In this document: positions 1 to 50,467 of the stretch, piece after piece | Numbering within the stretch: position 1 is the stretch's first letter | How the letters are laid out: each line of letters begins with the position of its first letter | DNA from: Escherichia coli | Lineage (GTDB): Bacteria; Pseudomonadota; Gammaproteobacteria; Enterobacterales; Enterobacteriaceae | DNA length: 64,000 nt | Direction: 5' to 3' (one strand) | Assembly: GCF_017348835.2 (NCBI RefSeq) | Contig: NZ_CP071375.1 | Position numbers and translations under genes: made by a program | The notes under the pieces: model-generated | Seen by the model: the letters and a program-made list of their open reading frames with translations, nothing else | Told to the model about the DNA's origin: nothing | Database searches by the model: none

Positions 1-32
1 GAGTAGTTAATGCCGTAGACCAGAATTTTCAT
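1..32 (-). CDS. wcaI: Colanic acid glycosyltransferase WcaI, 5' end only (runs off window start)
   Basis: Minus-strand ATG at 30-32 overlapping the gmm stop (ATGA); encoded [10 protein letters not shown] matches the remembered WcaI N-terminus; only about 11 codons are in the window. Confidence 0.5.
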
Positions 33-508
33 AATCCGGGTACTCCGGCACGCTTCTCAGCGAGAAAATAGGCGCGGCTGTTAGCGTGAACATTGTCACT
101 GGCGAGCAGTGCATCCGGCGTCAGCCAGCGGTAATCGTCATGCTGCTCATCCGGCAGTAACAGTTCTTCTTCCGCTACTCTGAAGCGAAAACCGAGCACC
201 ACATAGTGAGTGGTGAAATCCGTGCCAGAGAAGTTATCGTCATAAAAGTGCTGCCAGACACCGTAAAACTGGCCTGCTGTTATCGGCAGACGCAGCCCCA
301 GTTCCGCCATCGTCAGCCGCTCAAATGCGGCTTCCAGCGTTTCGTCTTTCTGCACGCGCCCTCCCGGCACAAACCAGTAACCCTGCGCCGGGCGGTTGGT
401 TCTTTTGCCAAGCAGAAACTCGCCGCGACTGTTCTCGACAATAAAGTCGAGAGAGACAAGCGGAGTGGAGCGCACTACCGTGGCAAAGTCTTCCTGACGT
501 AAAAACAT
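29..508 (-). CDS. gmm: GDP-mannose mannosyl hydrolase (NUDIX)
   Basis: ORF 29..511 translation (M)[26 protein letters not shown]... matches Gmm/WcaH; position between wcaI and fcl; start taken at the second ATG (159 aa) from memory of K-12. Confidence 0.85.
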
Positions 509-510
509 CA

Positions 511-1476
511 TTACCCCCGAAAGCGGTCTTGATTCTCAAGGAACCACTGGTAAGTGCTGGCAAGCCCCGCTTCCAGTGAGATTTCGTGATACCAGCCAAG
601 CTGATGCAGGCGCGTCACATCCAGCAGTTTGCGCGGCGTACCATCCGGTTTGCTGGCATCAAAAACCACCCGACCTTTGTAACCCACCACTTTGGCGATG
701 GTTTGCGCTAGCTCGCGGATAGTGCAGTCAACGCCCGTGCCGACGTTAATGTGTGACAGCATCGGCTGGGTGTTTTCCAGCCAGACTTCGTGCGCCAGCT
801 CCATCACATGAATGCTCGCCGCCGCCATATCATCGACGTGCAGAAATTCACGCATCGGTGTACCACTGCCCCACACCACCACGTCCGGCGCATTCTGTGC
901 CGTCGCCTCGTGGAAGCGACGCAGCAATGCTGGGATCACATGCGAATTACTCGGGTGGAAGTTGTCATGCGGCCCGTACAGGTTGGTCGGCATGACAGAG
1001 CGGTAATCGCGTCCATACTGGCGGTTGTAAGATTCGCACAGTTTGATCCCGGCGATTTTGGCAATGGCGTAAGGCTCGTTGGTCGGCTCCAGCGTGCCCT
1101 GCAATAACTCGCTTTCTGCCATCGGCTGTTTTGCCAGTTTCGGGTAGATGCAGGACGATCCAAGAAACAGCAGTTTGTTCACGTCGTTCTGATGCGCGGC
1201 GTGAATGATGTTGCTCTCAATCATCATGTTCTGGTAGATGAAATCCGCCGGATAGGTGTTGTTGGCAACAATGCCGCCCACTTTCGCCGCCGCCAGATAG
1301 ACCTGGTCAATACGTTCGCTGGCAAAGAAATCATGCACGGCGCGGCTGTCCAGCAGGTTCAGCTCGTCGCGGGTGCGTAATACCAGTTCCACATCACCGC
1401 GCTGTTCGAGCTGCCGCCTGATGGCAGAACCGACCATCCCGCGATGGCCAGCGATAAAAATGCGTTGTCTACTCAT
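511..1476 (-). CDS. fcl: GDP-L-fucose synthase
   Basis: 321-aa [24 protein letters not shown]..., NAD(P)-binding Rossmann motif, epimerase/reductase; conserved position downstream of gmd. Confidence 0.92.
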
Positions 1477-1478
1477 GC

Positions 1479-2600
1479 TTATGACTCCAGCGCGATCGCC
1501 ACGTCGTAGCCGTGAGATTTCAGCAGAGAGTGTTTTTTCGCCGCTTCGAGGTCATTAGCCACCATTTCAGACACCATCTCTCTGAGGGTGATTTCCGGTT
1601 TCCAGCCCAGTTTTTCGTGCGCTTTGGTCGGGTCGCCGAGCAGCGTTTCAACTTCTGCCGGACGGAAGTAACGCGGGTCAACGGCGATAATCACATCACC
1701 CGGTTTAACGCCCGGCGCGTCATGCCCGGTGACGGAAACCACAATGCCCTTCTCTTCAACACCCGTGCCTTCAAAGCGCAGTTTGATGCCCAGCTGTGCT
1801 GCCGCCATTTCCACGAACTGACGTACGGAGTACTGAACGCCGGTAGCAATAACGAAATCTTCCGGCTGTTCCTGTTGCAGCATCATCCACTGCATTTTGA
1901 CGTAGTCTTTGGCATGGCCCCAGTCACGCAGGGAATCCATATTGCCGAGGTACAGGCACGACTCCAGCCCCTGGGCGATGTTGGCGATTGCGCGGGTGAT
2001 TTTGCGGGTAACGAAGGTTTCGCCGCGGCGCGGGGATTCATGGTTGAAGAGAATACCGTTACAAGCGTACATGCCATAGGATTCGCGGTAGTTAACGGTG
2101 ATCCAGTAGGCGTACAGTTTGGCGACCGCATACGGAGATCGCGGGTAGAACGGCGTGGTTTCTTTCTGCGGAATTTCCTGCACCAGACCGTACAGTTCAG
2201 AGGTGGAAGCCTGATAGAAACGGGTTTTCTTTTCCAGACCGAGGAAGCGGATCGCCTCCAGCAGGCGCAGCGTACCCATCGCGTCGACGTCAGCGGTATA
2301 TTCCGGTGACTCAAAAGAAACCGCAACGTGGCTCATTGCGCCCAGGTTGTACACTTCATCCGGCTGCACTTCACGCAAAATGCGCGTCAGGTTGGAGGTA
2401 TCACTCAGGTCGCCATAATGCAGATGGAATTTCGGGTTGCAGGTGTGCGGATCCTGATAAATGTGATCCACGCGCTCGGTGTTGAATGACGATGCACGAC
2501 GCTTAATACCATGCACCTCGTAACCTTTTTCCAGCAGAAACTCTGCCAGGTAAGAACCGTCTTGTCCGGTTACACCGGTGATGAGAGCGACTTTTGACAT
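1479..2600 (-). CDS. gmd: GDP-mannose 4,6-dehydratase
   Basis: 373-aa [34 protein letters not shown]...; classic Gmd N-terminus and SDR fold. Confidence 0.93.
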
Positions 2601-2626
2601 GTCTTATTCCTCTGTATTTTTTGAAT

Positions 2627-3175
2627 TTATTCAGTTTCAACGCGTTCGCGTATCACCACTGCGGGATTCCCCCGGCAAACCACATTTGCCGGAAGCGATT
2701 TAAAAACACTGCTTCGTGCACCCACGACGGTGCCGTCGCCAATCGTGACGCCAGGGGCAACAAAAACATCTGTCGCCAGCCAGCATTTCTCGCCAATCAC
2801 AATAGGCGTGGCGTTAATGGTGAAATGTTGACTTGCATGGTCGTGGCTCCCGGTGCATAAATAACTTTTTTGCGATATCACCGAATGTGCGCCAATGGTT
2901 ATTTCACCGAGGGTATATAAATTGACGTCATCGCCGACCCACGCGTAATCACCTAAGGTTAATTTCCACGGATAGGTAATTTTTACTGACGGCCGAATAA
3001 CTACGTTTTTTCCTATTTTTGCGCCGAATAAACGTAATAAAAATGCCCGCCAGCGATACAATACTTGTGGCGACCAGGCAAATAATGTTGCCTGTACTGC
3101 CCACCACAATTGCACTTTAATAGCGTTGCCACCCCGGAACCCTTTCGGCACCGAGAAACCGCTTAAATCCTGCAT
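2627..3175 (-). CDS. wcaF: Colanic acid biosynthesis acetyltransferase (hexapeptide-repeat)
   Basis: 182-aa ORF with left-handed beta-helix hexapeptide repeats; synteny in the wca cluster. Confidence 0.85.
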   Translation of the reverse strand: MQDLSGFSVPKGFRGGNAIKVQLWWAVQATLFAWSPQVLYRWRAFLLRLFGAKIGKNVVIRPSVKITYPWKLTLGDYAWVGDDVNLYTLGEITIGAHSVISQKSYLCTGSHDHASQHFTINATPIVIGEKCWLATDVFVAPGVTIGDGTVVGARSSVFKSLPANVVCRGNPAVVIRERVETE

Positions 3176-3190
3176 CGTTTTCCCTTATAT

Positions 3191-3937
3191 TCAGCTTTTG
3201 TTATATAAGGCTTTCGTCTTTGAGGTAGTACGCTGGCGTAAATGCCAGGATAATTCTGCCCAGAAGCCAGGCACATGTAATATTTGCCGTTGGACTTTTT
3301 TGGCGTCAGCACACAATTCCATATTATTGGTGGTTGATACCCCACCCATGGAAAACTCAGACACCAGGCCATTGAGTTTTTTAAATGCATAACCGGCTTT
3401 ATACATTTTAGCCGCCAGCGCGTAATCGGAAGAAACTTTATATTCCAGGTCATAACGCCATTTTTTCAAACCGGATACCGGGAAAAATATCGCCTGATGA
3501 CTGGCGGGCAGGCTGTGATAAATATACCAACCCGGTTTGGCGCTACGTTTAATTTTATGCCCGTCGCCAAAATCCAGCAGCGCATCGCCGGTGATCATCA
3601 CGTTATCTTTTTGCATTTTTAACTTACGGACAAAATTTGCGGCATCCTGATGAAAAATATCGCCCGAGTTGAGAAACAACGCGAACTTGCCTTGTGCCAT
3701 CGCAATGCCTTTGTTCATGGCGTCGTAGATACCGTTATCTGGCTCGCTGACAAAGCGTAGGTTATAGATACCATTGAGATTTTCCAGATACTCACGGGTA
3801 CCGTCGTTGGAACCGCCATCGACAACAATCCATTCGAAGCTGATATCGTCCGCCTGCGCCAGATGCGCCAGCGAGGCATGTGTTTTGACTATTCCTTCGA
3901 GGTTACGAAACGCGACAGTGATTATGCTAAGCAACAT
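3191..3937 (-). CDS. wcaE: Colanic acid biosynthesis glycosyltransferase (GT2)
   Basis: 248-aa ORF, GT2-like (DxD-type) motifs; synteny. Confidence 0.85.
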
Positions 3938-3947
3938 GTTCTTATTC

Positions 3948-5165
3948 TTACCTCGTAATATTTAACGCTTTTCGCAAAATAAACGGACAGACGATTAAAA
4001 ATGCATATTCCGGGCTAAATATCGAACCGGTAAAAAACAGCGATACCGGAGTAAAAAGATATAATTGCACGCGAAAATTGCGGTTATCACCAAAAGCGTT
4101 GATCATCATTTTTATCACTTTCCCCATGTACCACAGCGATAAAAACACCGCGAACCAGGAAAAATAAATAATCAGCAGATACAAACCATTGTCTATGGTT
4201 TTTCCGACATCCGCACCGTTAAATATTCCGAATGATGCGACATATTCATAAAGTGAGCCAAATCTGACTACACCGTCAATATGGGTCAAAGAATAACCGA
4301 CCATCACCAGCGGACCGACAATACGATAATACGATGACGATCCTTCCGTACCTAAATCGCCCAGGCGGGTGGAAATATAAGGAAATGCAATTACCACACC
4401 AACCAGGAATACAGCCAGAGAAATCAATGCTAACGGTAACTTTTTCTTAATCGCCTCTTTATTCAGATATTGAAATGCCCACTCCAGCAAATAAAACAGG
4501 ATAAAGGTCATAACCCCTGAAAACGATCCGGATAATATTATCCCTACGAGAATCATAGCATCTGTTTTAGGCGTTTTGATACCAAACTGTTTGATGCTGA
4601 GCCAAATTGAGATTAATGCCAGAGCGAAAAATGCCGGTTCGAAATAAAGTGCTGTCGTGCGCTTGCCGCCGAATTTGATGAAATTCAGCACATAGCTGTT
4701 GCTGTAAATCAGATATTTCGAAATCGACTCCATAATACTGCTGCCGCCGGTGAGGATAATTTGCGCCATCTCCATCGCCGCCAGCGCCACCACCAGCCCG
4801 ACCACCAGATAAAAGAAACGTAAAATCTTGCGATGGTTGTGTGGCGAAATTGTTTTAAAACGAATACTCCACACCATGCCAATAATGATCACAATATAGA
4901 CAAACAGCATGGTTGAAGTGACGTATTTACTGGCATCCAGCGACTGACCAAACAGATAGTTAAACGCCGTGAGTCCCGCACCAATCCCTAAGGCAATCAT
5001 CAATTTTTTAACGCTGATGCGTTCTAAAAACAGCAGTAACAAGACAGGTAAAAAAGTGACGATGGTGATGGGGAAACTTTCGCCAAGCTGGGCGATTTTG
5101 ACGTTAACCAGCAGGTAGATCAGCGGCAGCAGCAGGTAGCTACAGATTCTGATAGAAGTTGACAT
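3948..5165 (-). CDS. wcaD: Colanic acid polymerase, multi-pass membrane protein
   Basis: ORF track gives 429 aa; internal ATG at 5163-5165 gives the 405-aa product starting [13 protein letters not shown]...; highly hydrophobic polytopic sequence; synteny. Confidence 0.85.
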
Positions 5166-6357
5166 ACTCCTCCAGCATCTGTTGTCCACTGTAGGCCGCG
5201 CGGCTGCGTTGGCTGAACTCAGCCAGCGTGGTACCAAATATCGCCTGCGCGATTTCCGGTTTGCTTAACTGCACCAGTTGAAGCACGTCTTCTTCGCTGA
5301 CGGTTTTACCGCCGGATTTTTGCAACACTTCCCGCGCCGCATCGCTATGGGTGGCAATCACCGGCACGCCAATTGATAACGCCTCACACAAAATCAGCGG
5401 GTAGTTATCGACGCGAGAACTGAATACCAGCGCATCCATCTGATTGAGCGCGCTCATCAACTTGCGCTTGTCAGTTTCAAAGCCGTGATTAACCACGTTG
5501 CCAGCGGTGAACGGCGAGAACTTACCAAAGGTATGCAGTTCGATTTTGTCGCCCAGCGCCATCATCTCACGCACCAGTTGCTGGTTAGTTTTGCCGTCGT
5601 AACGCAGGTCATGCGCCACCACCGCGATTTTCGGCTTGCCCTGGGTTTCGCGCACCGGAGGCAAGTCCGCCAGAATCGCCTCGGTTGCCATATCAATACC
5701 GTTATTGATAATCCGGCAACGCCCTGGACCGTACAGGCTATTGAAAGCGTCAGCCACATGCTGGCTGGGGGAAATAAACTGACAGCCCAGCGCCAGCATC
5801 TCACGGAATAACTGGCGTTTGCCCGCCACCAGTTGGTGTGCGCGATCAATCTTCACCGGCGGATAATTATTTAAGGTCGGGCATTTCTGGCAGCCCGTTT
5901 TCCAGCCTTCGCAACCGTCGGTAAAGGCGCAGCGTCCGGTTACACTCCAGTGGTCGTGCAGCGTCCAGACCAGAGTGACGTCCGGTTTGTGGTTTTTCAC
6001 CTTTTCGCAAAAGCGCACCACGCTCTTAAGATTTAGCCAGTAGCTGTGCAGCACATGAAAATGCAGGACCACCGGACCCGGTGTGCGAGTAATGGTGCGA
6101 TATAACTCATTGAAATTGCCAAACAGATCGCGATTAAACAGACGAAACAGGGCAATATTCGCCATTGCGGTCATCCGCGGCGTATGTTTGATTACCTGCG
6201 GATAGTTCTGATGGCTGACGCTCTCTTTGCCGCCTTTGCCGTAGCCGTAGACAAAATGTGACGCCAGCCCCTGTTGCAGCGCGCGCTGGTGGAGATCTAA
6301 CGCCACACCTGCTGCCCCGCCTTCCGCCAGTCGCACATTAAATTGCAGAATATTCAT
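5140..6357 (-). CDS. wcaC: Colanic acid biosynthesis glycosyltransferase (GT4-like)
   Basis: 405-aa ORF MNILQFNVRLAEGGAAGVALDLHQ...; overlaps wcaD start by 26 nt; synteny. Confidence 0.88.
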   Translation of the reverse strand: MNILQFNVRLAEGGAAGVALDLHQRALQQGLASHFVYGYGKGGKESVSHQNYPQVIKHTPRMTAMANIALFRLFNRDLFGNFNELYRTITRTPGPVVLHFHVLHSYWLNLKSVVRFCEKVKNHKPDVTLVWTLHDHWSVTGRCAFTDGCEGWKTGCQKCPTLNNYPPVKIDRAHQLVAGKRQLFREMLALGCQFISPSQHVADAFNSLYGPGRCRIINNGIDMATEAILADLPPVRETQGKPKIAVVAHDLRYDGKTNQQLVREMMALGDKIELHTFGKFSPFTAGNVVNHGFETDKRKLMSALNQMDALVFSSRVDNYPLILCEALSIGVPVIATHSDAAREVLQKSGGKTVSEEDVLQLVQLSKPEIAQAIFGTTLAEFSQRSRAAYSGQQMLEEYVNFYQNL

Positions 6358-6842
6358 TTAATTACCTTCACTCGCGCTTTTTCTCCCACCACCAGCGCGT
6401 TGTCCGGGACAGAGTCGAGCACCACGCTGCCCGCGCCCACGGTGACGTTGTTACCAAGCGTGATATCACCAAGAATAATGACGTTGGCACCGAGTTCGAC
6501 GCCGTTGCCAATGTGTGGACATGCCATGTTATCGGCACCCCGATTGCCGATAGTGACTCCGTGGCGAATGGTGAAATCATCCCCCGCCACCACGTTTTTA
6601 TTGATCACTACGGCGTAACCGTGATGGATAGTAAAGCGGCGGCCAATGGTCGCGGCGGCCTGGATTTCATAACCGAAAAAGCATTCGGTGATAATGCGAT
6701 ACAGCACCAGCAGCGGGGCCGCCCACAGATTGTTGAGGACGTTCTTTTTGCGCCACACTGAACAAAAATGAGCAACACGATAGGCAAGTACCATGCAGCA
6801 CGGGCGTAAACTCCAGCTGTTGGCGCGCAGATCTTCCAGCAT
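6354..6842 (-). CDS. wcaB: Colanic acid biosynthesis acetyltransferase (serine acetyltransferase-like hexapeptide)
   Basis: 162-aa ORF with hexapeptide-repeat region; 4-nt overlap with wcaC. Confidence 0.88.
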   Translation of the reverse strand: MLEDLRANSWSLRPCCMVLAYRVAHFCSVWRKKNVLNNLWAAPLLVLYRIITECFFGYEIQAAATIGRRFTIHHGYAVVINKNVVAGDDFTIRHGVTIGNRGADNMACPHIGNGVELGANVIILGDITLGNNVTVGAGSVVLDSVPDNALVVGEKARVKVIK

Positions 6843-6844
6843 CT

Positions 6845-7684
6845 TTAGCGCCCCCGAATACCATCAGCCAGACGTTTGCCGTTACGCACCGACAGCAGCG
6901 TCAGCAAAGTGCGCCAGGTCATATGTTTATTGCGGATCTGGTAGAGGGTAAACAGCTGATATTTTTTGCTGGCGCGGTCAAATTTGTCTTTGTGCTTGCG
7001 GTAAAAGTGGAAGTATCCGGAGAATTTTTTCGGTGACGAGGTGATCTGCATTTCACCGTGATTGATATGCAGGATCTGCGTCGCCTCTTCCACTTTCCAC
7101 GGTTCGCCGTACTCCACCACCATCCGCAGGAAGATGTCGTAATCCTGTGCCGCTTTCAGTTCGGTATCGAACAAACACTCTTTGAAACGCCATGCCCAGG
7201 TAAAGACCTGATTGCCAATGATATTGCGTTTATAGAACAGGCGGCGTGAGTACGGCGATTTGGGATACAGTGGTAAGCTTGCCGGTTGGGAATAAACTTC
7301 TCCCTGGCATACGTAGTCGTTAGCGTACAAAAAGGCGTGAGTGACCAGTTGCTGTTTATGGGCGAGGAAGACGCTCAGGCGGTTGGGGGTCCATTCGTCA
7401 TCGTCATCGATCCCGGTAATGTATTCCCCTTGCGCCAGCATAATCGCCTGGTTACGTACCGCGCACGCCCCGCTGTTAATGTCGTTGTGAATGTAGGTAA
7501 TACGCGGATCGTTGAGGGCGGTGACGTACTGTTGCAGTTGTTCCCAGGAGGTGGAGCAATCATCCACGATGATCATCTCCCAGTTGCTGTAGTCCTGGCG
7601 CAAGACCGATTTTATCGCCCGAATCGCCAGTTGTTGGCGGTTCCAGGTCGGCATATAGATTGAGATCAGCGGATTGTCTTTCAT
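6845..7684 (-). CDS. wcaA: Colanic acid biosynthesis glycosyltransferase (GT2)
   Basis: 279-aa ORF MKDNPLISIYMPTWNRQQLAIRAIKSVLRQ... with GT2 N-terminal signature and DDDD motif. Confidence 0.9.
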   Translation of the reverse strand: MKDNPLISIYMPTWNRQQLAIRAIKSVLRQDYSNWEMIIVDDCSTSWEQLQQYVTALNDPRITYIHNDINSGACAVRNQAIMLAQGEYITGIDDDDEWTPNRLSVFLAHKQQLVTHAFLYANDYVCQGEVYSQPASLPLYPKSPYSRRLFYKRNIIGNQVFTWAWRFKECLFDTELKAAQDYDIFLRMVVEYGEPWKVEEATQILHINHGEMQITSSPKKFSGYFHFYRKHKDKFDRASKKYQLFTLYQIRNKHMTWRTLLTLLSVRNGKRLADGIRGR

Positions 7685-7714
7685 AGGTTGTTCTCCCGGC
7701 TTATGAGCTGGTTT

Positions 7715-7775
7715 GCTTGCCGGATGCGGCGTGAGCGCCTTATCCGGCCTACGGGGCGGTGCGAATGCAGGCGTC
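7715..7775. repeat. REP (repetitive extragenic palindrome) element between wcaA and wzc
   Basis: gccggatgcggcgtgagcgccttatccggcctacg, the typical E. coli REP consensus. Confidence 0.7.
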
Positions 7776-7776
7776 G

Positions 7777-9939
7777 TTATTTCGCGTCCGACTTATATTC
7801 GTATTCGTAATAGCCATAATCCTGATACGCGCTGGCGCGGCGGAAGATGGAGTTCAGAATCACCCCTTTCACCGGAATACCGTTTTGCTCAAAGCGGCTC
7901 AGACTGGTTTCCACTTCTTTCAATGTGTTGACCGCATAACGCGCCACCATTAACGTGGTTCCGACATGACGACCAACAATTGCCGCATCGGTCACTGCCA
8001 GAATCGGCGGCGTATCAATCAACACCAGGTCATAGTTTTTACTCGCCCAGTTCACCAGTTCGGCAAAGCGTTCGCTCATTAACAGTTCAGAAGGATTTGG
8101 CGGCACCTGACCGCGCGGGATCAGGTCAAATTTGGCAATAGAGGTCGGTTTAGCTACGGTAGTAATATCGCCCTGACCAATCAGAATTTCCGACAGGCCA
8201 TTAACGTTATTAGTGCCCAACAGCTCATGGGTGTAGCCTTTGCGCATATCGCAGTCGATCAACAACACCCGTTTATTGGTCTGGCTGATCACTGCCGCCA
8301 GGTTGGCGCAGACAAAGGTTTTACCGATTGACGGGCTAACCCCGGTCATCATCAACACATTGTTCTGCGCCTGCATCATCGCGAAGTGCAGACTGGTACG
8401 CAGACTACGGATGGCTTCAATCGCCAGATCGGTTGGATTCCCCACCGCCAGTAGCTGGCTCTGTTTATAGCGTTTAATCCCTTTGATGGTTTTGACGCTA
8501 TCGCGCGCTTTCTGCCACTCCGACAGCGGGATGCTGGCATAGACGCTGATACCGTGTTCTTCCAGCACCTGCGGGCTTTCGATGCCGCGATTAAACAACG
8601 AGCGCAGCAGCACACCCACGATAGAGAGCATCAGGCCAAGGATAATCGCGCCGAGGATAATCAGCCCTTTCTTCGGTTTTAGCACGCCAGGCTGGGTGAT
8701 TGCCGGGTCAACAATGCGCACATCGCCGACGGTGCTGGCTTCGGTGATTTTCAGCTCCTGCTCTTTATTCAGCAGTTGCATATAGACCTGCTGACCAGAC
8801 TCGACATCGCGGGTCAGGCGCACAATCTCCTGCTGGGTTTTCGGCATCGCCGTTACGCGACCGTTAAGTTTGGCTTTCTCTTCTTCCAGCGCCTGACGTT
8901 TCTCCAGCAGCGTGCGGTACGCCGGGTGAACTTTGGTGTACAGCTTGGAGATTTCCGCCTCTTTAAAGGTCAGTTCGTTCAACTGCGCGTCGATGTTCAC
9001 CATCGAATCGAGCACCGCTTTCGCTTCCAGCGGCAGATCAACAGAATCTTTATCCTGACGGAAGGCATTCAGTTTGTTTTCGGCAACATCAAGGCGGCTA
9101 CGTACTTCCGGTAACTGTTGCGCGAGGAAAGCGAGGCTTTTCGACGCTTCCGCCGATTTGCGCTCAATATTTTGTTCCTGATAGTTACGGGCGATGCTGT
9201 TAAGAATGTCGCGGATCTGTTCGCGATCTTCACCGGTATAAGTCAGGCTCAGTACGCCTGCGTCTTTGCCGTTCTCCGTTACCGTCAGGCTGTTTTGCAG
9301 TTGGTTGATCATCCCCAGCTTGGAGTATTTGGTGATGGTAAACTCACTGCCCGGGCTGGCGTGAATAGCTTCAACCATCAGCGTGACGCCTTCTTTTGTC
9401 AGCATCTGGCCCGCTTGCCCACGGGCGCTAAAGCCGCCATCGCTGCTCAGAGTGTAGTTTTTATCGTCCAGCACATTAAGCGTAAACACCTGATCCGCCA
9501 TCTCTTTCGGACGGTTAAAGGTAGTCACTTTCACCGTCTCGTTCTGGCGTCCCATCAGACGATCCCAGCCCGCACCGAAAATCGGGAACGTGTTTTTGCT
9601 CACCGCAATATCGAGGTCGAGATCGTCCACCGTTTTACCAAGCACCAGGCGCGAACGAATCAACTGGATCTCGGCGTCCGATGCAGGCGGTTTGTTGGCT
9701 AACGCCGATCCGATATCCTGCACTAACGAATTGCCGCTGCTTTGCTCGATTTGTACCAGTGCGTCGGCACTATAAATCGGCGTGGCGAAGAAGGTGTAAA
9801 CCACGGCACAGAGGGCAAATACGGCGGTGATGCCAATCACCCACCAGCGCGCTTCAATGACGGTGCCGACCAGGCGACCAATATCGATTTCATCACTGCC
9901 CGTTACCGGAGCGGCATGTTGTTTTACTTTTTCTGTCAT
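7777..9939 (-). CDS. wzc: Tyrosine autokinase / polysaccharide co-polymerase Wzc
   Basis: ORF track 732 aa; ATG at 9937-9939 gives the 720-aa product MTEKVKQHAAPVTGSDEIDIGRLVG...; Walker A (GVSPSIGKT) and C-terminal Tyr-rich tail (YQDYGYYEYEYKSD). Confidence 0.93.
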   Translation of the reverse strand: MTEKVKQHAAPVTGSDEIDIGRLVGTVIEARWWVIGITAVFALCAVVYTFFATPIYSADALVQIEQSSGNSLVQDIGSALANKPPASDAEIQLIRSRLVLGKTVDDLDLDIAVSKNTFPIFGAGWDRLMGRQNETVKVTTFNRPKEMADQVFTLNVLDDKNYTLSSDGGFSARGQAGQMLTKEGVTLMVEAIHASPGSEFTITKYSKLGMINQLQNSLTVTENGKDAGVLSLTYTGEDREQIRDILNSIARNYQEQNIERKSAEASKSLAFLAQQLPEVRSRLDVAENKLNAFRQDKDSVDLPLEAKAVLDSMVNIDAQLNELTFKEAEISKLYTKVHPAYRTLLEKRQALEEEKAKLNGRVTAMPKTQQEIVRLTRDVESGQQVYMQLLNKEQELKITEASTVGDVRIVDPAITQPGVLKPKKGLIILGAIILGLMLSIVGVLLRSLFNRGIESPQVLEEHGISVYASIPLSEWQKARDSVKTIKGIKRYKQSQLLAVGNPTDLAIEAIRSLRTSLHFAMMQAQNNVLMMTGVSPSIGKTFVCANLAAVISQTNKRVLLIDCDMRKGYTHELLGTNNVNGLSEILIGQGDITTVAKPTSIAKFDLIPRGQVPPNPSELLMSERFAELVNWASKNYDLVLIDTPPILAVTDAAIVGRHVGTTLMVARYAVNTLKEVETSLSRFEQNGIPVKGVILNSIFRRASAYQDYGYYEYEYKSDAK

Positions 9940-9941
9940 TC

Positions 9942-10385
9942 TTATACCTGCTCTGCGTTCAATGCCTGCGCCCACTGGCGGGCAGACCGTTCAAGTAATG
10001 TGTACACCGCTGCAAACGTTTCCCGGCTTTTGCGATACGGATCGGGGATTTCACATTCGTTATCCCAGTGACCAAACAGCATCACTTTGCCGCGCATCTC
10101 CGGTGCCATCTCGCATAAGCGTTCGATATGGCGCTTTTCCATGGTCAAAATCAGGTCGTAGTTGCGACACAGACGGCGGCTGATTTGACGGGCACAGTGA
10201 CCTTCCAGAGACAGTTGATGTTCTGCGGCGACGCTGATAGCGGTAGGATCAGCGCCCTTACCGACCAGCGCGCCGAGTCCAGCGGACTCCACTTTCAGCT
10301 CCGGGTGATAACGTTGCAGTAAGCGTTCCGCCGTCGGGGAACGGCAAATATTGCCGACACAGACAACTAATATGTTGTTAAACAT
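9942..10385 (-). CDS. wzb: Low-molecular-weight protein-tyrosine phosphatase Wzb
   Basis: 147-aa ORF MFNNILVVCVGNICRSPTAERLL..., the CX5R LMW-PTP P-loop. Confidence 0.93.
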   Translation of the reverse strand: MFNNILVVCVGNICRSPTAERLLQRYHPELKVESAGLGALVGKGADPTAISVAAEHQLSLEGHCARQISRRLCRNYDLILTMEKRHIERLCEMAPEMRGKVMLFGHWDNECEIPDPYRKSRETFAAVYTLLERSARQWAQALNAEQV

Positions 10386-10390
10386 GACGA

Positions 10391-11530
10391 TTACCAGTTA
10401 TGAATGTCGCTGGCTGTATCCGTCATGTAACGGACACCGCTAATAGTTGGCAGCAACTGATTGATCAGACGGTTCCAGCGGGAAACCGGGGCGGTGGTGA
10501 CATACACCACGTCATAAGGTTGCAGGCGGAATTCTGTCGCCATCACCAGCGACGTGGCATCGGACATATCCAGCTGGTAGATATTGGCAATCTTGCCGTT
10601 ACGCCCGCCCTCGCCTTTCAGCGGACGAATGACAAAGATGCCGCTGGCGTTGGAGGTGGTCATGTCGATGCCTTCAGCATTGCCCAGGGCTTCGGTCAGG
10701 GTCATGCCGCTAAAGTCCATTTTCAGGGTGCTCTGTTTCTTCACTTCACCCATCACAAATACTTTCAGATCATCATTACGCGGCACGTAGAGAATATCGC
10801 CGGGGTAAAGCAGTCGATTCTGGTTGAGGTCGCCGTTTTGCATCAGCGCCTGCAAAGAAATGCGCTCTTCACGACCATTGTGTGTTAGCACCACGTTGCG
10901 CCAGTCAGCGGTGTCGGTCAGGCCACCTGCGGCGTTGATGGCATCGAGAATGGTCAGTGGTACGTTGGTAATCGCCTGTTGACCGGATTTATTCACCTGG
11001 CCGGAGATATAGGCTTTTTGCGAGCGGAAGGCGGCGATATTAACGTCCACCTGCGGGTCAGCGATGTACGTCGCTAAGCGCCCGGTAATATCACTGCGGA
11101 TTTCAGCGAGCGTTTTCCCGACTACGTGAACCTTGCCGATATACGGGTAAAACATAGTGCCGTCAGGCTGTACCCAGTTGCCGGTGTCGCTGGAGCTGCG
11201 GTACTGACCGGCTGGCGTGGTGAGTTCCGGGTGATCCCAGACGGTGACATTCAGAACGTCCCCCGGCCCGACGCGATACTGGTAATTCGCGATCTCACTT
11301 TCCAGCGTCATATTGGGGCGCGCTACATTCGGGCGTGGGCGTAATTGGTCAATCAGGCGCGGGGTCAGCGGATAAACATTCACCATTTTGTCGAGATCGA
11401 AATCAGCGTCCTGCTGTTTGATGACGTCTTTGCCCATCGTCGACATATTGCTGCCCGGAAGTACTGTGCAACCGCTTATCAAGGTTACTGACACCAATAA
11501 TGGCATCAATTTCATTTTGGATTTCATCAT
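10391..11530 (-). CDS. wza: Outer-membrane polysaccharide export lipoprotein Wza
   Basis: 379-aa ORF with lipoprotein signal peptide (…[11 protein letters not shown]…); first gene of the wza-wzb-wzc-wca operon. Confidence 0.93.
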
Positions 11531-11708
11531 TGTTTATTTATCACTTTGGCAGAGTTATTATCCTGTGCACTATTAATAGCAATGTCGCCATGCACATTTA
11601 CCTTGCAGTTAATTGAATAAAAATTTAACTGGCATCAGTCCTAAAAAAATTGATTTCATCCGCAGGCTATTGACAGAATAATTCAGACTGGTCTTTCAGG
11701 CATCCAGA

Positions 11709-11720
11709 CACGCTACCGCC
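11709..11720 (-). promoter_or_regulatory. ops element (RfaH recruitment site) within the JUMPstart sequence of the wza leader
   Basis: Plus strand reads cacgctaccgcc, whose reverse complement is GGCGGTAGCGTG, the ops consensus; lies in the long untranslated leader upstream of wza. Confidence 0.7.
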
Positions 11721-11933
11721 CCTGGCTTTTTAGCTACCAATACACTGATTTAGCTTAATTTTTCAAACCCTCTCAACATACAGTCGTTGATGAGAAAGGG
11801 TTATTGTGGAAATTAACTTCCGAATATAAGGTGACATTATGGTAATTGAATATTGGCTCTCCAATAATGCAGGAGGAAGTGTTACAGCTAACGGAATAGC
11901 AGGCAAGGTAACAATTCGGCAATTGGCTATTTT

Positions 11934-11947
11934 TAAGAATTATATTA
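11934..11947. promoter_or_regulatory. Candidate RcsAB box upstream of the colanic acid operon promoter
   Basis: TAAGAATTATATTA resembles the remembered RcsAB-box consensus (TaAGaatatTCctA); placement upstream of wza is appropriate; exact site not verified. Confidence 0.3.
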
Positions 11948-12188
11948 AGTGTCATTCAATATAGTTTTTAGGAATTTCTTTAGATTGACAATAATTAATA
12001 TAGCGTCTCCACATGCGATATTTCTTAAATAATATTTTATTATTACCACTTTTAATTCAGGGATAATGCGATGTTCTAGCCCTCAAATAATGTGAGATAA
12101 ATAGTGCTGTGACATTGCATTTTTGCCCTGATTTATCCATGATCGAATTGTGACATTTGTCATACAACGAATAGGTTTTGTACTTACT

Positions 12189-13846: not shown

Positions 13847-14185
13847 ATGAGAAAAAAGCTGGCTTTTCTTGATACCAGTCTTGACGATTTACGCGCATTT
13901 CCAGAATCGTCTCGACAGGAAATTGGCTATCAACTCGACAGGATCCAACAAGGGTTAAACCCATACGACTGGAAACCTTTTTCAACTATCGGCCCTGGTG
14001 TGCGAGAGATTCGTACTCGCGATGCTGATGGGATCTATCGCGTCATGTATGTCGCAAAATTTGAAGAAGCGGTTTACGTATTGCATTGTTTTCAAAAGAA
14101 AACACAGACTACCAGTCAATCGGATATTGATTTAGCCAAACGACGCTATAAAGAACTTGTTCAGGAGCGGAAAAATGAAAATTGA
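13847..14185 (+). CDS. Type II toxin, RelE/ParE superfamily, HigB-like (phage Gp49-like)
   Basis: 112-aa ORF MRKKLAFLDTSLDDLRAFPESSRQEIGYQLDRIQQGL...VYVLHCFQKKTQ; small basic protein, toxin-first gene order, overlaps the following HTH gene; RBS aaggatgga upstream. Confidence 0.65.
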   Translation: MRKKLAFLDTSLDDLRAFPESSRQEIGYQLDRIQQGLNPYDWKPFSTIGPGVREIRTRDADGIYRVMYVAKFEEAVYVLHCFQKKTQTTSQSDIDLAKRRYKELVQERKNEN

Positions 14186-14465
14186 AACCTTTGATAGTGT
14201 GTGGGATGCGGTGAGTGACACCCCTGAACAAGCGGAAAATATGCGGATCCGTGCCGAGCTTGTAACGATCATTAATAACTGGATTGAACAACAAGGGATT
14301 AGCCAGGCTCAGGCAGCTTCTGCTTTAGGGGTCACTCAACCTCGCATCTCTGAACTTGCCAGAGGTAAAATCCAGATCTTTAGTATCGATAAATTGATCA
14401 CCATGATGGCTCATGCAGGACTACATATTCAACGTATTGAAGTTCAATATCCACATGCTGCTTAG
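14175..14465 (+). CDS. Type II antitoxin, XRE-family helix-turn-helix, HigA-like
   Basis: ORF 14157..14465; likely start at ATG 14175 (MKIETFDSVW..., RBS ggagcgg); HTH motif ISQAQAASALGVTQPRISELARGK; overlaps the toxin stop by 11 nt. Confidence 0.65.
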   Translation: MKIETFDSVWDAVSDTPEQAENMRIRAELVTIINNWIEQQGISQAQAASALGVTQPRISELARGKIQIFSIDKLITMMAHAGLHIQRIEVQYPHAA

Positions 14466-27333: not shown

Positions 27334-27482
27334 TGAGGGTTAGGGAGAGGTTTCCCCCTCCCCCTGGTGTTCTTAGTAAGCCTGGAAGCTAATCACTAAG
27401 AGTATCAGCAGTATGATGACGTGCTTCATCATAACCCTTTCCTTATTAAAAGCCCTCTTCTCCGGGAGAGGGTTTCCCGTTT
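27334..27482 (+). ncRNA. sibA: Sib antisense sRNA, copy 1 (approximate ends)
   Basis: Plus-strand transcript fully overlapping the ibs ORF; candidate -35 ttgaca at 27299-27304 and terminator hairpin gccctcttctccgggagaggg + T-tract near 27450-27482. Ends inferred, not mapped. Confidence 0.6.
27373..27432 (-). CDS. ibsA: Ibs type I toxin, copy 1 (19 aa, MMKHVIILLILLVISFQAY)
   Basis: Hand translation of the reverse complement of 27373-27432; hydrophobic membrane peptide typical of Ibs toxins. Confidence 0.7.
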   Translation of the reverse strand: MMKHVIILLILLVISFQAY

Positions 27483-27667
27483 CAGCGTCCCGCTGAAATC
27501 GTCGGCTTACCTCCTTTCGCCCTGAATGCAGTCTATCGCTAACGCGTGAACAAAATAGTTCCCTCTGTGATTATTGCGTAACGACTCGCAAAGAATATTT
27601 GCTGGCAGGATCGCAGACTGCAAAGCCTGCAGATTGACAATCTTATCGTGAAGGCATACTTTCAGGA

Positions 27668-27811
27668 GTGAGGGTAGAGTGGGGTTTCCCCCGCCCTGGT
27701 AGTCTTAGTAAGCCGGGAAGCTTATGACTAAGAGCACCACGATGATGATCCACTTCATCATGACCCTTTCCTTATTTAAGGCCCCTTCCTCGGGAGGGGC
27801 TTTCCCGTTTC
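27668..27811 (+). ncRNA. sibB: Sib antisense sRNA, copy 2 (approximate ends)
   Basis: Candidate -35 ttgaca at 27634-27639, -10-like tacttt; terminator ggccccttcctcgggaggggc + T-tract ending about 27811. Confidence 0.6.
27705..27761 (-). CDS. ibsB: Ibs type I toxin, copy 2 (18 aa, MMKWIIIVVLLVISFPAY)
   Basis: Hand translation of the reverse complement of 27705-27761. Confidence 0.65.
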   Translation of the reverse strand: MMKWIIIVVLLVISFPAY

Positions 27812-27994
27812 AGCGTCCCGCTGAAATCGTCGGCTTACCTCCTTTCGCCCTGAATTCAGTCTATCGCTAACGCGTGAACAAAATAGTTTCCTCTGTGATT
27901 ATTGCGTAACGTCTCGCAAAGAATATTTGCTGGCAGGATCGCAGACTGCAAAGCCTGCGGATTGACATTCTGAACGTGAAGGCATACTTTCAGG

Positions 27995-28138
27995 AGTGAG
28001 GGTAGAGCGGGGTTTCCCCCGCCCTGGTAGTCTTAGTATGCTGGGTAGCTAATCACTAAGAGCACCACGATGATGAGTATCTTCATCATGACCCTTTCCT
28101 TATTTATGGCCCCTTCCTCGGGAGGGGCTTTCCCGTTT
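27995..28138 (+). ncRNA. Sib antisense sRNA, copy 3 (extra copy relative to the two I remember at this K-12 locus; approximate ends)
   Basis: Third repeat unit with the same promoter-like ttgaca…tacttt and terminator hairpin ggccccttcctcgggaggggc + T-tract. Confidence 0.55.
28033..28089 (-). CDS. Ibs type I toxin, copy 3 (18 aa, MMKILIIVVLLVISYPAY)
   Basis: Hand translation of the reverse complement of 28033-28089. Confidence 0.6.
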   Translation of the reverse strand: MMKILIIVVLLVISYPAY

Positions 28139-39873: not shown

Positions 39874-40116
39874 TTACGATGCCGGGCGTGGGTTGTTGGC
39901 GTCCGGCTTTATTTCCAAATAACGCTTATTTATTTACCTGCGCCATTAAAATAGTGGACACTGATGAATACTCATTGTGCTTTCTTTGTTTAACATCTCC
40001 ATGCTTATCCTCCTGAACATGTTCATCTGCCAAAATATCTTCTAATACTTTTCGTGACGCTATCCGGTTTATGACATACACTGATGTAAGATTTTTACTT
40101 ACAGGAGAGCATAAAC

Positions 40117-40368
40117 ATGGCCAGAACGATGACGGTTGATCTCGGCGATGAGTTGCGTGAATTTATCGAGTCCTTAATTGAATCCGGCGACTATCGCACC
40201 CAAAGCGAAGTGATCCGTGAGTCACTGCGCTTACTTCGAGAAAAGCAAGCAGAGTCTCGCCTGCAAGCGTTACGTGACATGCTTGCAGAAGGGTTGAGTA
40301 GTGGTGAAGCTCAGCCGTGGGAAAAGGACGCGTTTTTACGGAAGGTGAAAGCAGGGATAAGGAAATAA
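40117..40368 (+). CDS. parD: Type II antitoxin ParD (ribbon-helix-helix, CopG/ParD family)
   Basis: 83-aa ORF MARTMTVDLGDELREFIESLIESGDYRTQSEVIRESLRLLREKQ...; RBS acaggagag upstream. Confidence 0.75.
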   Translation: MARTMTVDLGDELREFIESLIESGDYRTQSEVIRESLRLLREKQAESRLQALRDMLAEGLSSGEAQPWEKDAFLRKVKAGIRK

Positions 40369-40369
40369 T

Positions 40370-40666
40370 GTGCGTATTATTAAACTCATGCCAAAAGCCA
40401 ATGAGGATTTAGAAGGCATCTGGTATTACAGTTATCACCATTTCGGCGAACCACAAGCCGACAGATATGTGGAACATCTTTCAGACGTTCTCCAGATTCT
40501 GAGTAACAATAATATAGGTACGCCCAGACCTGAATTAGGCGAAGGTATTTTTGTTCTTCCTTTTGAACGCCACGTAATTTATTTCCTGCAATCACCAGGG
40601 GAAATTATCGTCATTCGTACCCTTAACCAAAACCAGGACGCCACCAGACATTTACACTGGAGCTAA
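40370..40666 (+). CDS. parE: Type II toxin ParE (RelE/ParE superfamily)
   Basis: 98-aa ORF (GTG start one nt after the parD stop) …GTPRPELGEGIFVLPFERHVIYFLQSPGEIIVIRTLNQNQD…, typical ParE C-terminal block. Confidence 0.75.
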   Translation: MRIIKLMPKANEDLEGIWYYSYHHFGEPQADRYVEHLSDVLQILSNNNIGTPRPELGEGIFVLPFERHVIYFLQSPGEIIVIRTLNQNQDATRHLHWS

Positions 40667-42459: not shown

Positions 42460-42777
42460 TCACTCTCCACATTTGAATGTCAGACGAGCGACGCCATGTA
42501 ATCCTGCACCTTCTGTCTTCAGGTCAACTATCTGCATTTTTTTGCCCTGAGTAACACAGAAATGGGCTGCATCATTTTTTACTATATTTTCTGCACCAGA
42601 TATTCTACCCCTGGCTAAAGAAGCTTCGGCTTCGGTGTAGTATTGGTTATCGAGTTTACGCTGAATATTACTTTTATATGCAAGACCAAATTTACCGATA
42701 CTTGTCTCATCATTATGCACAGCACAACCAGACATAAGAAAAATACTAAATAATGATATAGCAACTATCTTTTTCAT
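42460..42777 (-). CDS. yegR: Small lipoprotein YegR
   Basis: 105-aa ORF MKKIVAISLFSIFLMSGCAVHNDE… with lipobox LMSGC. Confidence 0.8.
   Translation of the reverse strand: MKKIVAISLFSIFLMSGCAVHNDETSIGKFGLAYKSNIQRKLDNQYYTEAEASLARGRISGAENIVKNDAAHFCVTQGKKMQIVDLKTEGAGLHGVARLTFKCGE

Positions 42778-49531: not shown

Positions 49532-50467
<936 letters not shown>

Follow-up and report, generated by a model that had tools for sequence, protein, structure and literature searches.

A fixed wcaC/wcaD junction and a separate low-GC3 tract in the colanic acid operon of Escherichia coli

The window, the 64,000-nt stretch of Escherichia coli DNA that we analysed, carries a polysaccharide operon in which two neighbouring genes, wcaC and wcaD, overlap by 26 nt and in which wcaD, wcaE and wcaF are more AT-rich than the genes on either side. 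Do the long overlap and the AT-rich genes both record a mosaic assembly of the locus, or are they two separate and old features? We favour the second answer, with a probability of roughly 0.7 for the account as a whole: a colanic acid operon with a fixed, ancient junction at which a predicted hairpin would couple the translation of wcaD to that of wcaC, and with a separate AT-rich tract that is maintained.

The colanic acid operon and its gene junctions

The window is 100% identical to the annotated chromosome of E. coli strain PE164, and its positions 1-11530 are the chromosomal E. coli colanic acid (wca/cps, slime capsule) operon, from wza to wcaI, on the minus strand, as are all features described below. 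In the RefSeq annotation of the identical record, the genes follow one another on a single strand in the canonical order wza-wzb-wzc-wcaA-B-C-D-E-F-gmd-fcl-gmm-wcaI-cpsB-cpsG-wcaJ-wzxC-wcaK-wcaL, and the chromosomal neighbours yegH and asmA adjoin the operon. About 4,800 of 5,426 complete E. coli genomes carry it, and the order from wza to gmm is unchanged in the loci of other genera. The part inside the window (29-11530, RefSeq coordinates) contains wza (10391-11530), wzb (9942-10385), wzc (7777-9939), wcaA (6845-7684), wcaB (6354-6842), wcaC (5140-6357), wcaD (3948-5165), wcaE (3191-3937), wcaF (2627-3175), gmd (1479-2600), fcl (511-1476) and gmm (29-508); wcaI extends past the window edge. 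WcaC is the colanic acid glycosyltransferase and WcaD the colanic acid polymerase (Wzy-type), each of 405 aa. The gene identities given in the initial annotation are correct by the RefSeq annotation and by the NCBIfam equivalogs TIGR04015, TIGR04010, TIGR04009 and TIGR04008, which match WcaC, WcaD, WcaE and WcaF over their full length, all above the curated cut-offs (898.9 bits against 784.85 for WcaC, residues 1-405 of 405; 871 bits against 589.65 for WcaD, residues 1-404 of 404). In the AT-rich leader upstream of wza (GC 0.35), the sequence GGCGGTAGCGTG at 11709-11720, which we take to be the ops/JUMPStart motif, matches the pattern GGCGGTAGNNTG, found once in the window against 0.06 matches expected by chance.

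The operon forms one long co-directional unit in which nearly every gene has its ribosome-binding site within the end of the preceding gene, most extremely so at the wcaC/wcaD junction. The window contains 12 co-directional overlaps among 39 co-directional neighbour pairs, and the -26 overlap is the longest of them. The cluster is indeed as tightly packed as initially described, and two of the short overlaps noted there hold, the 4-nt ATGA stop-start overlaps of wcaB/wcaC (6354-6357) and gmm/wcaI (29-32), both in RefSeq; the former is -4 in 75 of 77 loci of other genera. The broader statement that several other junctions overlap was right for these two and overstated for the rest: most of the others are 2-nt gaps, as at wzb/wzc, wcaA/wcaB, gmd/fcl and wcaI/cpsB, and three are larger, with 10, 15 and 26 nt at wcaD/wcaE, wcaE/wcaF and wcaF/gmd, respectively. 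A wzb/wzc overlap arising from a mechanical GTG open reading frame at 9975 was rejected because RefSeq and the other genera back the ATG at 9939, with 2 nt between the two genes.

The fcl/gmm junction, TAATGATG (506-513), contains two ATG triplets. The first shares 1 nt with the fcl TAA, so that the 1-nt overlap proposed for this pair exists if translation starts there; RefSeq, however, places the gmm start at the second ATG (508-506), 2 nt from fcl, and it is the second ATG, not the first, that is conserved in other genera. The PDB constructs of the gmm product used the longer form, meaning that the crystallised 160-aa proteins begin at an ATG that is not the conserved start.

A fixed overlap, a conserved Shine-Dalgarno sequence and a predicted hairpin

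The 26-nt overlap of wcaC and wcaD was confirmed at 5140-5165, in agreement with RefSeq. It holds the last eight codons of wcaC with its TAG, and the ATG of wcaD with the eight codons that follow; relative to the wcaC frame, that of wcaD is shifted one base forward, and wcaC ends 23 nt past the wcaD ATG. We found the same -26 overlap in 80 of 80 loci of other genera (about 25 genera of Enterobacteriaceae). It is also present in 4,736 E. coli genomes, and its core is invariant in the strains sampled. As judged from these alignments, the -26 layout is ancient, and it is fixed among the Enterobacteriaceae with this cluster. The overlap is an ordinary feature of an operon and shows no sign of recent gene shuffling.

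The conservation is not confined to the overlap. From -17 to +26 the junction hardly varies, so that the freeze covers about 17 nt ahead of the wcaD ATG, synonymous wcaC sites included. In the frozen block CAGATGCTGGAGGA(G/A)TATGTC (5161-5181), the synonymous wcaC sites upstream of the overlap are unchanged across 81 sequences. This block contains the wcaD Shine-Dalgarno (SD) sequence GGAGGAG (5167-5173), which is embedded in the wcaC codons CTG-GAG-GAG, 2-3 nt from the ATG, and which is invariant in the alignment except for G/A at 5167. Its calculated anti-SD duplex (-9.3 kcal/mol) is the second strongest in the cluster after that of gmm (-9.9 kcal/mol), and the SD and the ATG both fall within the last 12 wcaC codons. 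In wcaC, 76 alignment columns hold an invariant amino acid that has more than one codon. The codon is invariant too in just seven of them, all within the last 13 codons, and three of the seven are located upstream of the overlap, outside the dual-coding stretch. CTG and CAG are also generally preferred codons.

The same region is predicted to fold into an mRNA hairpin (candidate, 5142-5182), with the SD in its 5' arm, the AUG in the apical loop and a 3' arm that ends at the T of the wcaC TAG. The fold is predicted both in single sequences and in the alignment, with free energies of -12 to -18 kcal/mol (z -0.85 to -3.06), and 98.8% of the hairpin cells are paired compared to about 40% in slid controls. 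In the two most variable stem columns, purine-for-purine changes stand opposite U in nearly all sequences, which preserves the pair. For hairpin stability, the synonymous codons in use rank second of 96 in E. coli and fourth to seventh of 96 in other genera, and the E. coli-specific change of TCG to AAC gives a stronger predicted stem (-16.7 compared to -12.4 kcal/mol). In two of the seven individually folded sequences, both with GAG together with TCG, the inner stem folds otherwise (z -0.85 and -1.26). We found no compensatory double substitutions in the alignment, where 9 of the 15 pairs never vary, and the shuffle control for covariation returned the observed value as the columns scarcely vary; covariation therefore speaks neither for nor against the hairpin. 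Dual coding in any case fixes much of the 3' arm, and the SD by itself could account for the freeze in the 5' arm.

Together, the conserved SD and the predicted hairpin suggest that translation of the polymerase is coupled to that of wcaC. The two genes also have the layout of a coupled pair, being co-directional and overlapping, with the downstream ribosome-binding site inside the upstream reading frame. In the naked mRNA, the hairpin of about 41 nt would pair the SD, with the AUG in the loop, and we propose that free ribosomes would therefore start wcaD poorly. A ribosome completing wcaC would melt the hairpin, after which either a new 30S subunit could bind the exposed SD or the terminating ribosome could slip back by about 20 nt and restart. 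Judging from typical ribosome footprints, a spacing of -26 probably leaves no room for a terminating ribosome next to an initiating 30S subunit, so that re-initiation or a brief window after release would be needed. In this way, synthesis of the Wzy-type polymerase WcaD would be tied to translation of the glycosyltransferase WcaC. In practical terms, re-coding, splitting or refactoring wcaC/wcaD, for instance in colanic acid engineering, would destroy the 41-nt element and could change polymerase output. A WcaC-WcaD fusion made by programmed frameshifting was considered and rejected, as no slippery motif was seen and the positions upstream of the ATG vary in ways that are non-synonymous in the wcaD frame.

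The overlap might instead be a frozen accident without a regulatory role, produced by an ancestral shift of a start or stop and then locked in place by dual coding. No base of the overlap falls at the third codon position in both frames at once, which is enough to explain the invariance of 5140-5165, and the absence of covariation in the predicted hairpin fits such an accident, as does the view that selection presumably acts against longer overlaps (review PMC12548453). Dual coding, however, ends where the overlap ends, while the freeze reaches 17 nt further upstream into sequence that codes for wcaC only; there, all three of the degenerate columns with an invariant amino acid are codon-invariant, compared to 0 of 69 such columns in the part of wcaC that precedes the junction. 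The strength and conservation of the SD and the near-optimal codon choice for the predicted hairpin also argue against an accident. Moreover, gap length differs at the neighbouring junctions of the same 80 loci, indicating that the wcaC/wcaD gap could in principle have drifted. We regard an accident without function as unlikely. That the overlap is an annotation artefact, with the real wcaD start downstream of the wcaC stop, is highly improbable: long annotated overlaps do sometimes stem from start-codon errors, but the wcaD ATG (5165-5163) is unchanged in 81 of 81 sequences, none of the 29 wcaD codons after it is ATG, GTG or TTG, residues 8-22 of WcaD form its first hydrophobic segment and are preceded by Arg6, the head MS(R/T)SIR(I/V)CSYLLLP is conserved at the protein level, and the NCBIfam WcaD profile alignment begins at residue 1.

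The low-GC3 tract of wcaD, wcaE and wcaF

The AT-richness reported initially for wcaD, wcaE and wcaF was borne out, with GC contents of 0.424, 0.461 and 0.485 compared to 0.51-0.56 in the other wca genes, and with GC3 values of 0.505, 0.514 and 0.475 compared to 0.59-0.68. The gene boundaries are not the boundaries of the dip. Codons 2-126 of wcaD have a flank-like GC3 (mean 0.65 over 81 sequences; 0.57 in the window), which falls only past codon 130-150 or so, to 0.47 (0.45 in the window), and at the other end the dip extends into gmd. The low-GC3 tract thus spans approximately 2450-4780, comprising the distal two-thirds of wcaD, all of wcaE and wcaF and about the first 50 gmd codons. A compositional seam at the wcaC/wcaD overlap was rejected, as the GC3 of the first 125 wcaD codons matches that of the flanks; the overlap does not coincide with such a seam. 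The dip recurs in 70 of 70 loci, drawn from about 25 genera of Enterobacteriaceae, at a near-constant offset (mean GC3 difference -0.155, range -0.10 to -0.235).

The initial annotation had called this composition consistent with the mosaic origin typical of polysaccharide loci. In such a scenario, wcaD-wcaE-wcaF came from a donor of lower GC and was joined to genes of higher GC, and the difference is a remnant. Several observations suit it: the tract is contiguous, measures about 2.3 kb and lies about 0.15 in GC3 below 15 otherwise uniform cluster genes; hydrophobicity fails as an explanation, as wzxC has a GRAVY of +0.89 compared to +0.88 for WcaD and yet a GC3 of 0.71; the gaps inside the block (10, 15 and 26 nt) differ from the 2-nt gaps and 4-nt overlaps elsewhere; and the intragenic boundaries would suit homologous replacement. 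In addition, saturation of the 4-fold sites is incomplete (identity about 0.5 compared to 0.3 expected; about two-thirds of the sites have turned over), so that some ancestral signal could persist.

For the same reason, the simple argument that saturation implies active maintenance of the dip fails, and we used directional substitution counts at 4-fold sites in its place, a method with a known parsimony bias. These counts, approximate and biased at this divergence, gave 517 W>S and 734 S>W changes, i.e. no excess of AT-to-GC changes and no sign of amelioration toward the host or the flanks. The parsimony-based implied equilibrium GC4 is 0.485 (0.43-0.53) in the tract and 0.59 (0.57-0.61) in the flanks, and in both it lies below the current GC. 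The tract also diverges together with its surroundings, as its pairwise protein distances correlate with those of the two flanks at r 0.80 and 0.80, compared to 0.78 between one flank and the other; together with its presence in every locus sampled, this leaves neither a patchy distribution nor a discordant phylogeny. Nor is its composition atypical for the host. Relative to 33 other E. coli coding sequences in the window, the GC3 of wcaD, wcaE and wcaF has z values of -0.6 to -1.1, within about 1 SD, whereas the rest of the cluster is at +0.4 to +1.6; the sole compositional value that is low for the host is the total GC of wcaD (z -2.3), mainly from GC1.

A dip that is family-wide, co-diverging and not ameliorating means that any transfer must predate the radiation of these genera, and an event so old differs from the mosaicism seen between strains at O-antigen loci. 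A chimeric assembly of very great age is possible, and there is no pointer to recent strain-to-strain mosaicism of the O-antigen kind. Overall, we consider a mosaic origin improbable, and the initial attribution, in the form given, is unsupported in view of the dip in 70 of 70 loci, the left edge inside wcaD, the co-divergence, the missing AT-to-GC excess and the GC3 values within about 1 SD of other genes.

A further possibility is that wcaD is low in GC merely owing to the amino-acid make-up of a polytopic membrane protein rich in Phe, Ile and Leu. The GC1 of wcaD (0.42 compared to 0.51-0.62 in neighbouring wca genes), the GRAVY of WcaD and a T-rich coding strand fit this, and it explains why wcaD has the lowest total GC. 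However, GC3 is low as well, wcaE and wcaF encode soluble-type enzymes and are nevertheless low, and the equally hydrophobic wzxC has a GC1 of 0.56. Within wcaD, GC3 changes from 0.65 in the first third to 0.47 in the rest while GC1 and GC2 hardly shift. Hydrophobicity as the sole cause is thus largely refuted by the wzxC control and by the GC3 shift within wcaD, and we consider amino-acid composition a very doubtful explanation of the dip.

Instead, the tract is an old, family-wide local composition that is separate from the overlap, co-diverges with its flanks and is not relaxing. Since the dip is family-wide and co-diverging, does not drift to the flank composition and has a GC3 that is unremarkable for E. 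coli, we read it as an ancient, maintained feature and not as evidence of recent mosaicism. Local selection or a substitution bias is more likely than a fading trace of foreign DNA, and a candidate cause would be the low-GC, low-expression habit reported for wzy genes. More tentatively, and at odds we would put below even, 5142-5182 may be a conserved translational switch that hides the strong wcaD SD until a ribosome completing wcaC opens it, and that fixes a low, coupled WcaD:WcaC ratio throughout the Enterobacteriaceae with this cluster, and the tract, separately, may be a selected, position-specific programme of slow translation or low expression for the polymerase and the next two enzymes, as opposed to a relic of transfer. 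More generally, a polysaccharide locus can show a compositional dip without recent gene shuffling; the one described here is family-wide, co-diverging and not decaying.

Comparison with known systems

The colanic acid (wca/cps) gene cluster of E. coli K-12 was reportedly described by Stevenson et al. in 1996 (J Bacteriol) and by Stevenson, Lan and Reeves in 2000 (FEMS Microbiol Lett). The operon in the window has identical genes in identical order and shows no difference in kind. The window GC values of wcaD, wcaE and wcaF match those in a published table (42.4, 45.9 and 47.5; PMC5359238). The cluster, the annotated overlap and the per-gene GC values are thus already on record, and what is added here is the family-wide constancy of the -26 junction, the frozen block of SD and predicted hairpin, and the low-GC3 tract that starts inside wcaD.

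The wzy genes for O-antigen polymerases are low in GC and contain rare codons, reported also at their 5' end, which has been linked to low basal expression (review PMC12004945). WcaD, the Wzy-type polymerase of this cluster, likewise has the lowest GC (0.424), and in its gene codon 6 is AGA and 4.0% of the codons are rare. In contrast to those genes, the low-GC3 part of wcaD is its distal two-thirds and the 5' third is GC3-rich, and the tract runs on through the non-polymerase genes wcaE and wcaF. Whereas O-antigen Wzy proteins are highly divergent, WcaD is 82-94% identical across genera.

Stop-start overlaps of the ATGA (-4) and TAATG/TGATG (-1) types are coupled by termination-reinitiation (Huber et al. 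2019, PMC6728339; Huber et al. 2023, PMC10666635). The wcaB/wcaC and gmm/wcaI overlaps are textbook -4 junctions, while wcaC/wcaD, at 26 nt, falls well outside both classes. RNA-unfolding and ribosome-scanning models of coupling have been put forward, and coupling is described across overlaps of -38 to -50 nt (PMC12548453). Cases in which an mRNA structure sequesters the ribosome-binding site include E. coli atpH-atpA (Rex et al. 1994), rpmI-rplT and the MS2/fr coat-lysis overlaps of -38 to -50 nt (PMC12548453). The coupling that we propose for wcaC-wcaD is drawn from sequence and a predicted fold, and the arrangement resembles these examples in that the downstream SD and AUG lie inside the upstream reading frame, a predicted local hairpin covers the wcaD SD, and the ribosome translating wcaC would cross this hairpin and terminate just downstream of it.

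Gene map and junctions of the colanic acid operon

The first 11.5 kb of the window is, on the minus strand, the Escherichia coli colanic acid (wca/cps) operon; the operon, its annotation and its GC values are already known and published. In a megablast search, positions 1-12000 matched strain PE164 (NZ_CP114128.1) over a stretch of 100% identity; of 5,426 complete E. coli genomes, 4,780 had matches that cover 80% or more of this query. The RefSeq annotation of the PE164 record, converted to window positions, places wza at 10391-11530, wzb at 9942-10385, wzc at 7777-9939, wcaA at 6845-7684, wcaB at 6354-6842, wcaC at 5140-6357, wcaD at 3948-5165, wcaE at 3191-3937, wcaF at 2627-3175, gmd at 1479-2600, fcl at 511-1476, gmm at 29-508 and the start of wcaI at 32, all on the minus strand. 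These assignments, together with the NCBIfam equivalog models for WcaC, WcaD, WcaE and WcaF, which exceed their curated cut-offs at full length in each case, bear out the gene calls of the initial annotation. The leader upstream of wza (11531-12188, minus strand) is very AT-rich (GC about 0.35) and contains one exact match to the pattern GGCGGTAGNNTG (GGCGGTAGCGTG) at 11709-11720 (minus strand), with 0.06 expected by chance; we take this match to be the ops/JUMPStart motif.

The genes for the glycosyltransferase WcaC and the Wzy-type polymerase WcaD overlap at 5140-5165 by 26 nt, exactly as had been read from the sequence and in agreement with RefSeq. The length follows from the two reading frames there: on the coding strand, wcaC ends in ...CTG GAG GAG TAT GTC AAC TTC TAT CAG AAT CTG TAG, and wcaD begins with ATG TCA ACT TCT ATC AGA ATC TGT AGC. 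The 4-nt ATGA overlaps of wcaB/wcaC (6354-6357) and gmm/wcaI (29-32), both on the minus strand, were also correctly described. At the fcl/gmm junction (506-513, minus strand), which reads TAATGATG and has two adjacent ATGs, the claimed 1-base overlap holds only if the first ATG is the start, as in the 160-aa MMFLRQ form of the crystallised Gmm constructs (PDB 1RYA, 2GT2, 2GT4), but the second ATG is favoured by RefSeq (159 aa) and by the other genera, where it is present in 73 of 73 loci and the first in few only. The remaining junctions are gaps, of 2 nt at wzb/wzc, wcaA/wcaB, gmd/fcl and wcaI/cpsB, 5 nt at wza/wzb, 10 nt at wcaD/wcaE, 15 nt at wcaE/wcaF, 26 nt at wcaF/gmd and 92 nt at wzc/wcaA. 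Tight coupling is therefore a fair description of the cluster, but the statement that several other junctions overlap goes too far.

Throughout the window, 12 of the 39 co-directional neighbour pairs overlap. The longest of these overlaps is the 26 nt of wcaC/wcaD; nine others measure 4 nt, and the last two 1 and 11 nt. The convergent genes yegV (plus strand) and yegW (minus strand) overlap at their 3' ends by 27 nt (55246-55272). Between yegH and asmA, a RelE/ParE-family toxin gene (13847-14185, plus strand) and an HTH antitoxin gene (14175-14465, plus strand), with GC3 of 0.36-0.38, overlap by 11 nt; the pair resembles a small toxin-antitoxin module that has been inserted there. Another RelE/ParE toxin (40370-40666, plus strand) adjoins a ParD antitoxin that RefSeq flags as frameshifted (the two together at ~40071-40666), and could be an orphaned toxin or part of a decaying module. 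Between mdtA and yegL (~27373-28089, minus strand) are three tandem Ibs-family type I toxin mini-ORFs, each 19-20 codons long. In the identical RefSeq record, gatY (~49559-50413, minus strand) is annotated as a pseudogene with an internal stop, the other gat operon genes being intact.

Conservation of the wcaC/wcaD overlap

A WcaD protein scan with one genome per species yielded 80 loci. They represent about 25 genera, among which are Salmonella, Citrobacter, Enterobacter, Lelliottia, Kosakonia, Buttiauxella, Cedecea, Mangrovibacter and Atlantibacter. The 26-nt overlap is present in 80 of 80 loci, with the wcaC stop and the wcaD start at unchanged places, while the neighbouring junctions are more variable across the same loci. 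This exact, family-wide conservation is an addition of the present analysis. A mis-called wcaD start can be dismissed, because the ATG is invariant across the compared sequences, no alternative in-frame start occurs in the 29 codons after it, and both the WcaD N-terminus, MS(R/T)SIR(I/V)CSYLLLP, which runs into the first hydrophobic segment, and the WcaC tail, MLEEYV(S/N)FYQ(N/S/G)L, are conserved as protein. An enterobacterial-type colanic acid cluster, with a WcaD that shares 91% identity with the E. coli protein, was also found on a contig labelled 'Chryseobacterium sp. 18061', probably through mislabelling or contamination of the assembly.

Within E. coli, a 131-nt junction query matched 4,736 genomes, and in three strains spanning the identity range every difference falls outside the central junction block. 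Invariance inside the overlap is expected, because each base occupies codon position 1 or 2 in at least one of the two frames. The overlap does contain a three-base difference, AAC in E. coli (listed at 5113-5115, minus strand; invariant in the sampled strains) versus TCG in nearly all other genera, which changes Ser to Asn in WcaC and Arg to Thr in WcaD.

Conservation also continues upstream of the wcaD ATG for 17 nt, where the sequence codes for WcaC only. Among 81 sequences, 76 wcaC columns have an invariant degenerate amino acid and the codon is also invariant in seven, all within the last 13 codons; three of these (CAG, CTG and GAG) lie upstream of the overlap. The frozen block holds the wcaD Shine-Dalgarno (SD) sequence GGAGGAG, whose pairing with the 16S rRNA tail (-9.3 kcal/mol) is the second strongest in the cluster after that of gmm (-9.9) and which ends only 2-3 nt from the ATG.

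A candidate hairpin and proposed translational coupling

A hairpin at 5142-5182 (minus strand), with arms ACAGAU-CUGG-GGAGU and (A/G)CUUCU-UCAG-AUCUGU, is predicted both by RNAalifold on 20 genera and by folding of single sequences. Its 5' arm would contain the SD and its apical loop the AUG, and the last base of the 3' arm would be the first of the wcaC stop codon. Over 69 distinct sequences, 98.8% of the stem cells are paired, versus 34-44% when the partners are shifted by 1-3 columns. In the two stem columns that vary most, purines replace purines opposite U in nearly every sequence, so that the pair survives. The 5' arm includes five degenerate codons, which can be written in 96 synonymous ways; the natural choice ranks second for stability in E. 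coli and fourth to seventh in other genera. The change from TCG to AAC near the loop, specific to E. coli, strengthens the predicted fold by about 4 kcal/mol (-12.4 to -16.7 kcal/mol). The z-scores range from -0.85 to -3.06, and among the 15 pairs, nine of which never vary, there are no double compensatory changes. Much of the junction conservation could be explained by the SD requirement and dual coding; the hairpin is plausible rather than established.

Two models of translational coupling have been described, in which the upstream ribosome unfolds an inhibitory structure or the terminating ribosome re-initiates after scanning, and RNA phages couple genes over overlaps of -38 to -50 nt (PMC12548453). 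The simplest reading of the wcaC/wcaD junction is unfolding by the wcaC ribosome. Free ribosomes would start wcaD poorly, we propose, because its SD is paired and very near the AUG. A ribosome completing wcaC would open the hairpin, 23 nt beyond the wcaD AUG, and permit initiation by a fresh 30S subunit or, after a backward shift of about 20 nt, by the ribosome that has just finished wcaC. The layout of the junction and its conservation are demonstrated here, and we infer that translation of wcaD depends on that of wcaC. The frozen block of SD and predicted hairpin, which the present analysis adds, probably couples synthesis of the polymerase to wcaC.

An apparently maintained low-GC3 tract from wcaD to gmd

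The wcaD, wcaE and wcaF genes are AT-richer than the other wca genes, as initially noted (GC 0.424, 0.461 and 0.485 versus 0.51-0.56; GC3 0.505, 0.514 and 0.475 versus 0.59-0.68), and the same GC values have been published for other strains of E. coli in tabular form (PMC5359238). Relative to 33 other genes of the window, their GC3 is within about one SD (z -0.6 to -1.1) and the remaining cluster genes are GC3-rich (z +0.4 to +1.6), so the contrast is that of a mildly low tract within a mildly high cluster. The real compositional outliers of the window, far below wcaD, wcaE and wcaF, are a hypothetical gene at 42460-42777 (minus strand, GC3 0.27) and the fimbrial adhesin gene yehA at 60590-61624 (minus strand, GC3 0.35).

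The GC3 dip occurs in 70 of 70 loci with the full gene set (mean offset -0.155, range -0.10 to -0.235), and its absolute GC3 follows the host genome. In means over 71 sequences, wcaD GC3 is 0.63-0.69 over the first ~125 codons and 0.36-0.55 past codon ~130-150, wcaE falls from about 0.64 to 0.45 along the gene, wcaF is at 0.37-0.63, both below the flanks, and recovery comes only after about codon 50 of gmd. The first third of wcaD contrasts with the rest in 81 of 81 sequences and the 5' end of gmd in 74 of 74, although other genes, too, are somewhat AT-richer at their 5' ends. The tract (~2450-4780, minus strand) has these intragenic edges, near wcaD codon 130-150 and gmd codon 50, in every sampled genus, which rules out a start at the wcaC/wcaD overlap. 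Hydrophobicity was rejected as the cause of the dip, since wzxC has a GRAVY of +0.89 versus +0.88 for wcaD, yet a GC3 of 0.71.

The AT-richness had been described as consistent with a mosaic origin, a reading that the detail does not bear out; chimeric assembly before the radiation of these genera, as the ultimate origin of the tract, seems possible but unlikely to us. Besides the family-wide dip, the intragenic start and a GC3 that is not unusual for E. coli, pairwise protein distances of the tract are correlated with the distances of the left flank (r 0.80) and the right flank (r 0.80) as closely as the flanks are with each other (0.78), indicating a shared history. No upward drift is seen at conserved 4-fold sites, where parsimony gives 517 AT-to-GC versus 734 GC-to-AT changes and an implied equilibrium GC4 of 0.485 (0.43-0.53) versus 0.59 (0.57-0.61) in the flanks, although such counts are biased at this divergence (identity about 0.5 versus 0.3 expected) and are indicative only. 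The tract is an old, conserved and apparently maintained local composition; its start within wcaD and its behaviour as a stable feature rather than a recent mosaic are further additions of the present analysis. Low GC and rare codons, tied to low expression, are typical of wzy genes (PMC12004945). While this habit accounts neither for the spared 5' third of wcaD nor for the low GC shared by wcaE and wcaF, it fits WcaD in general.
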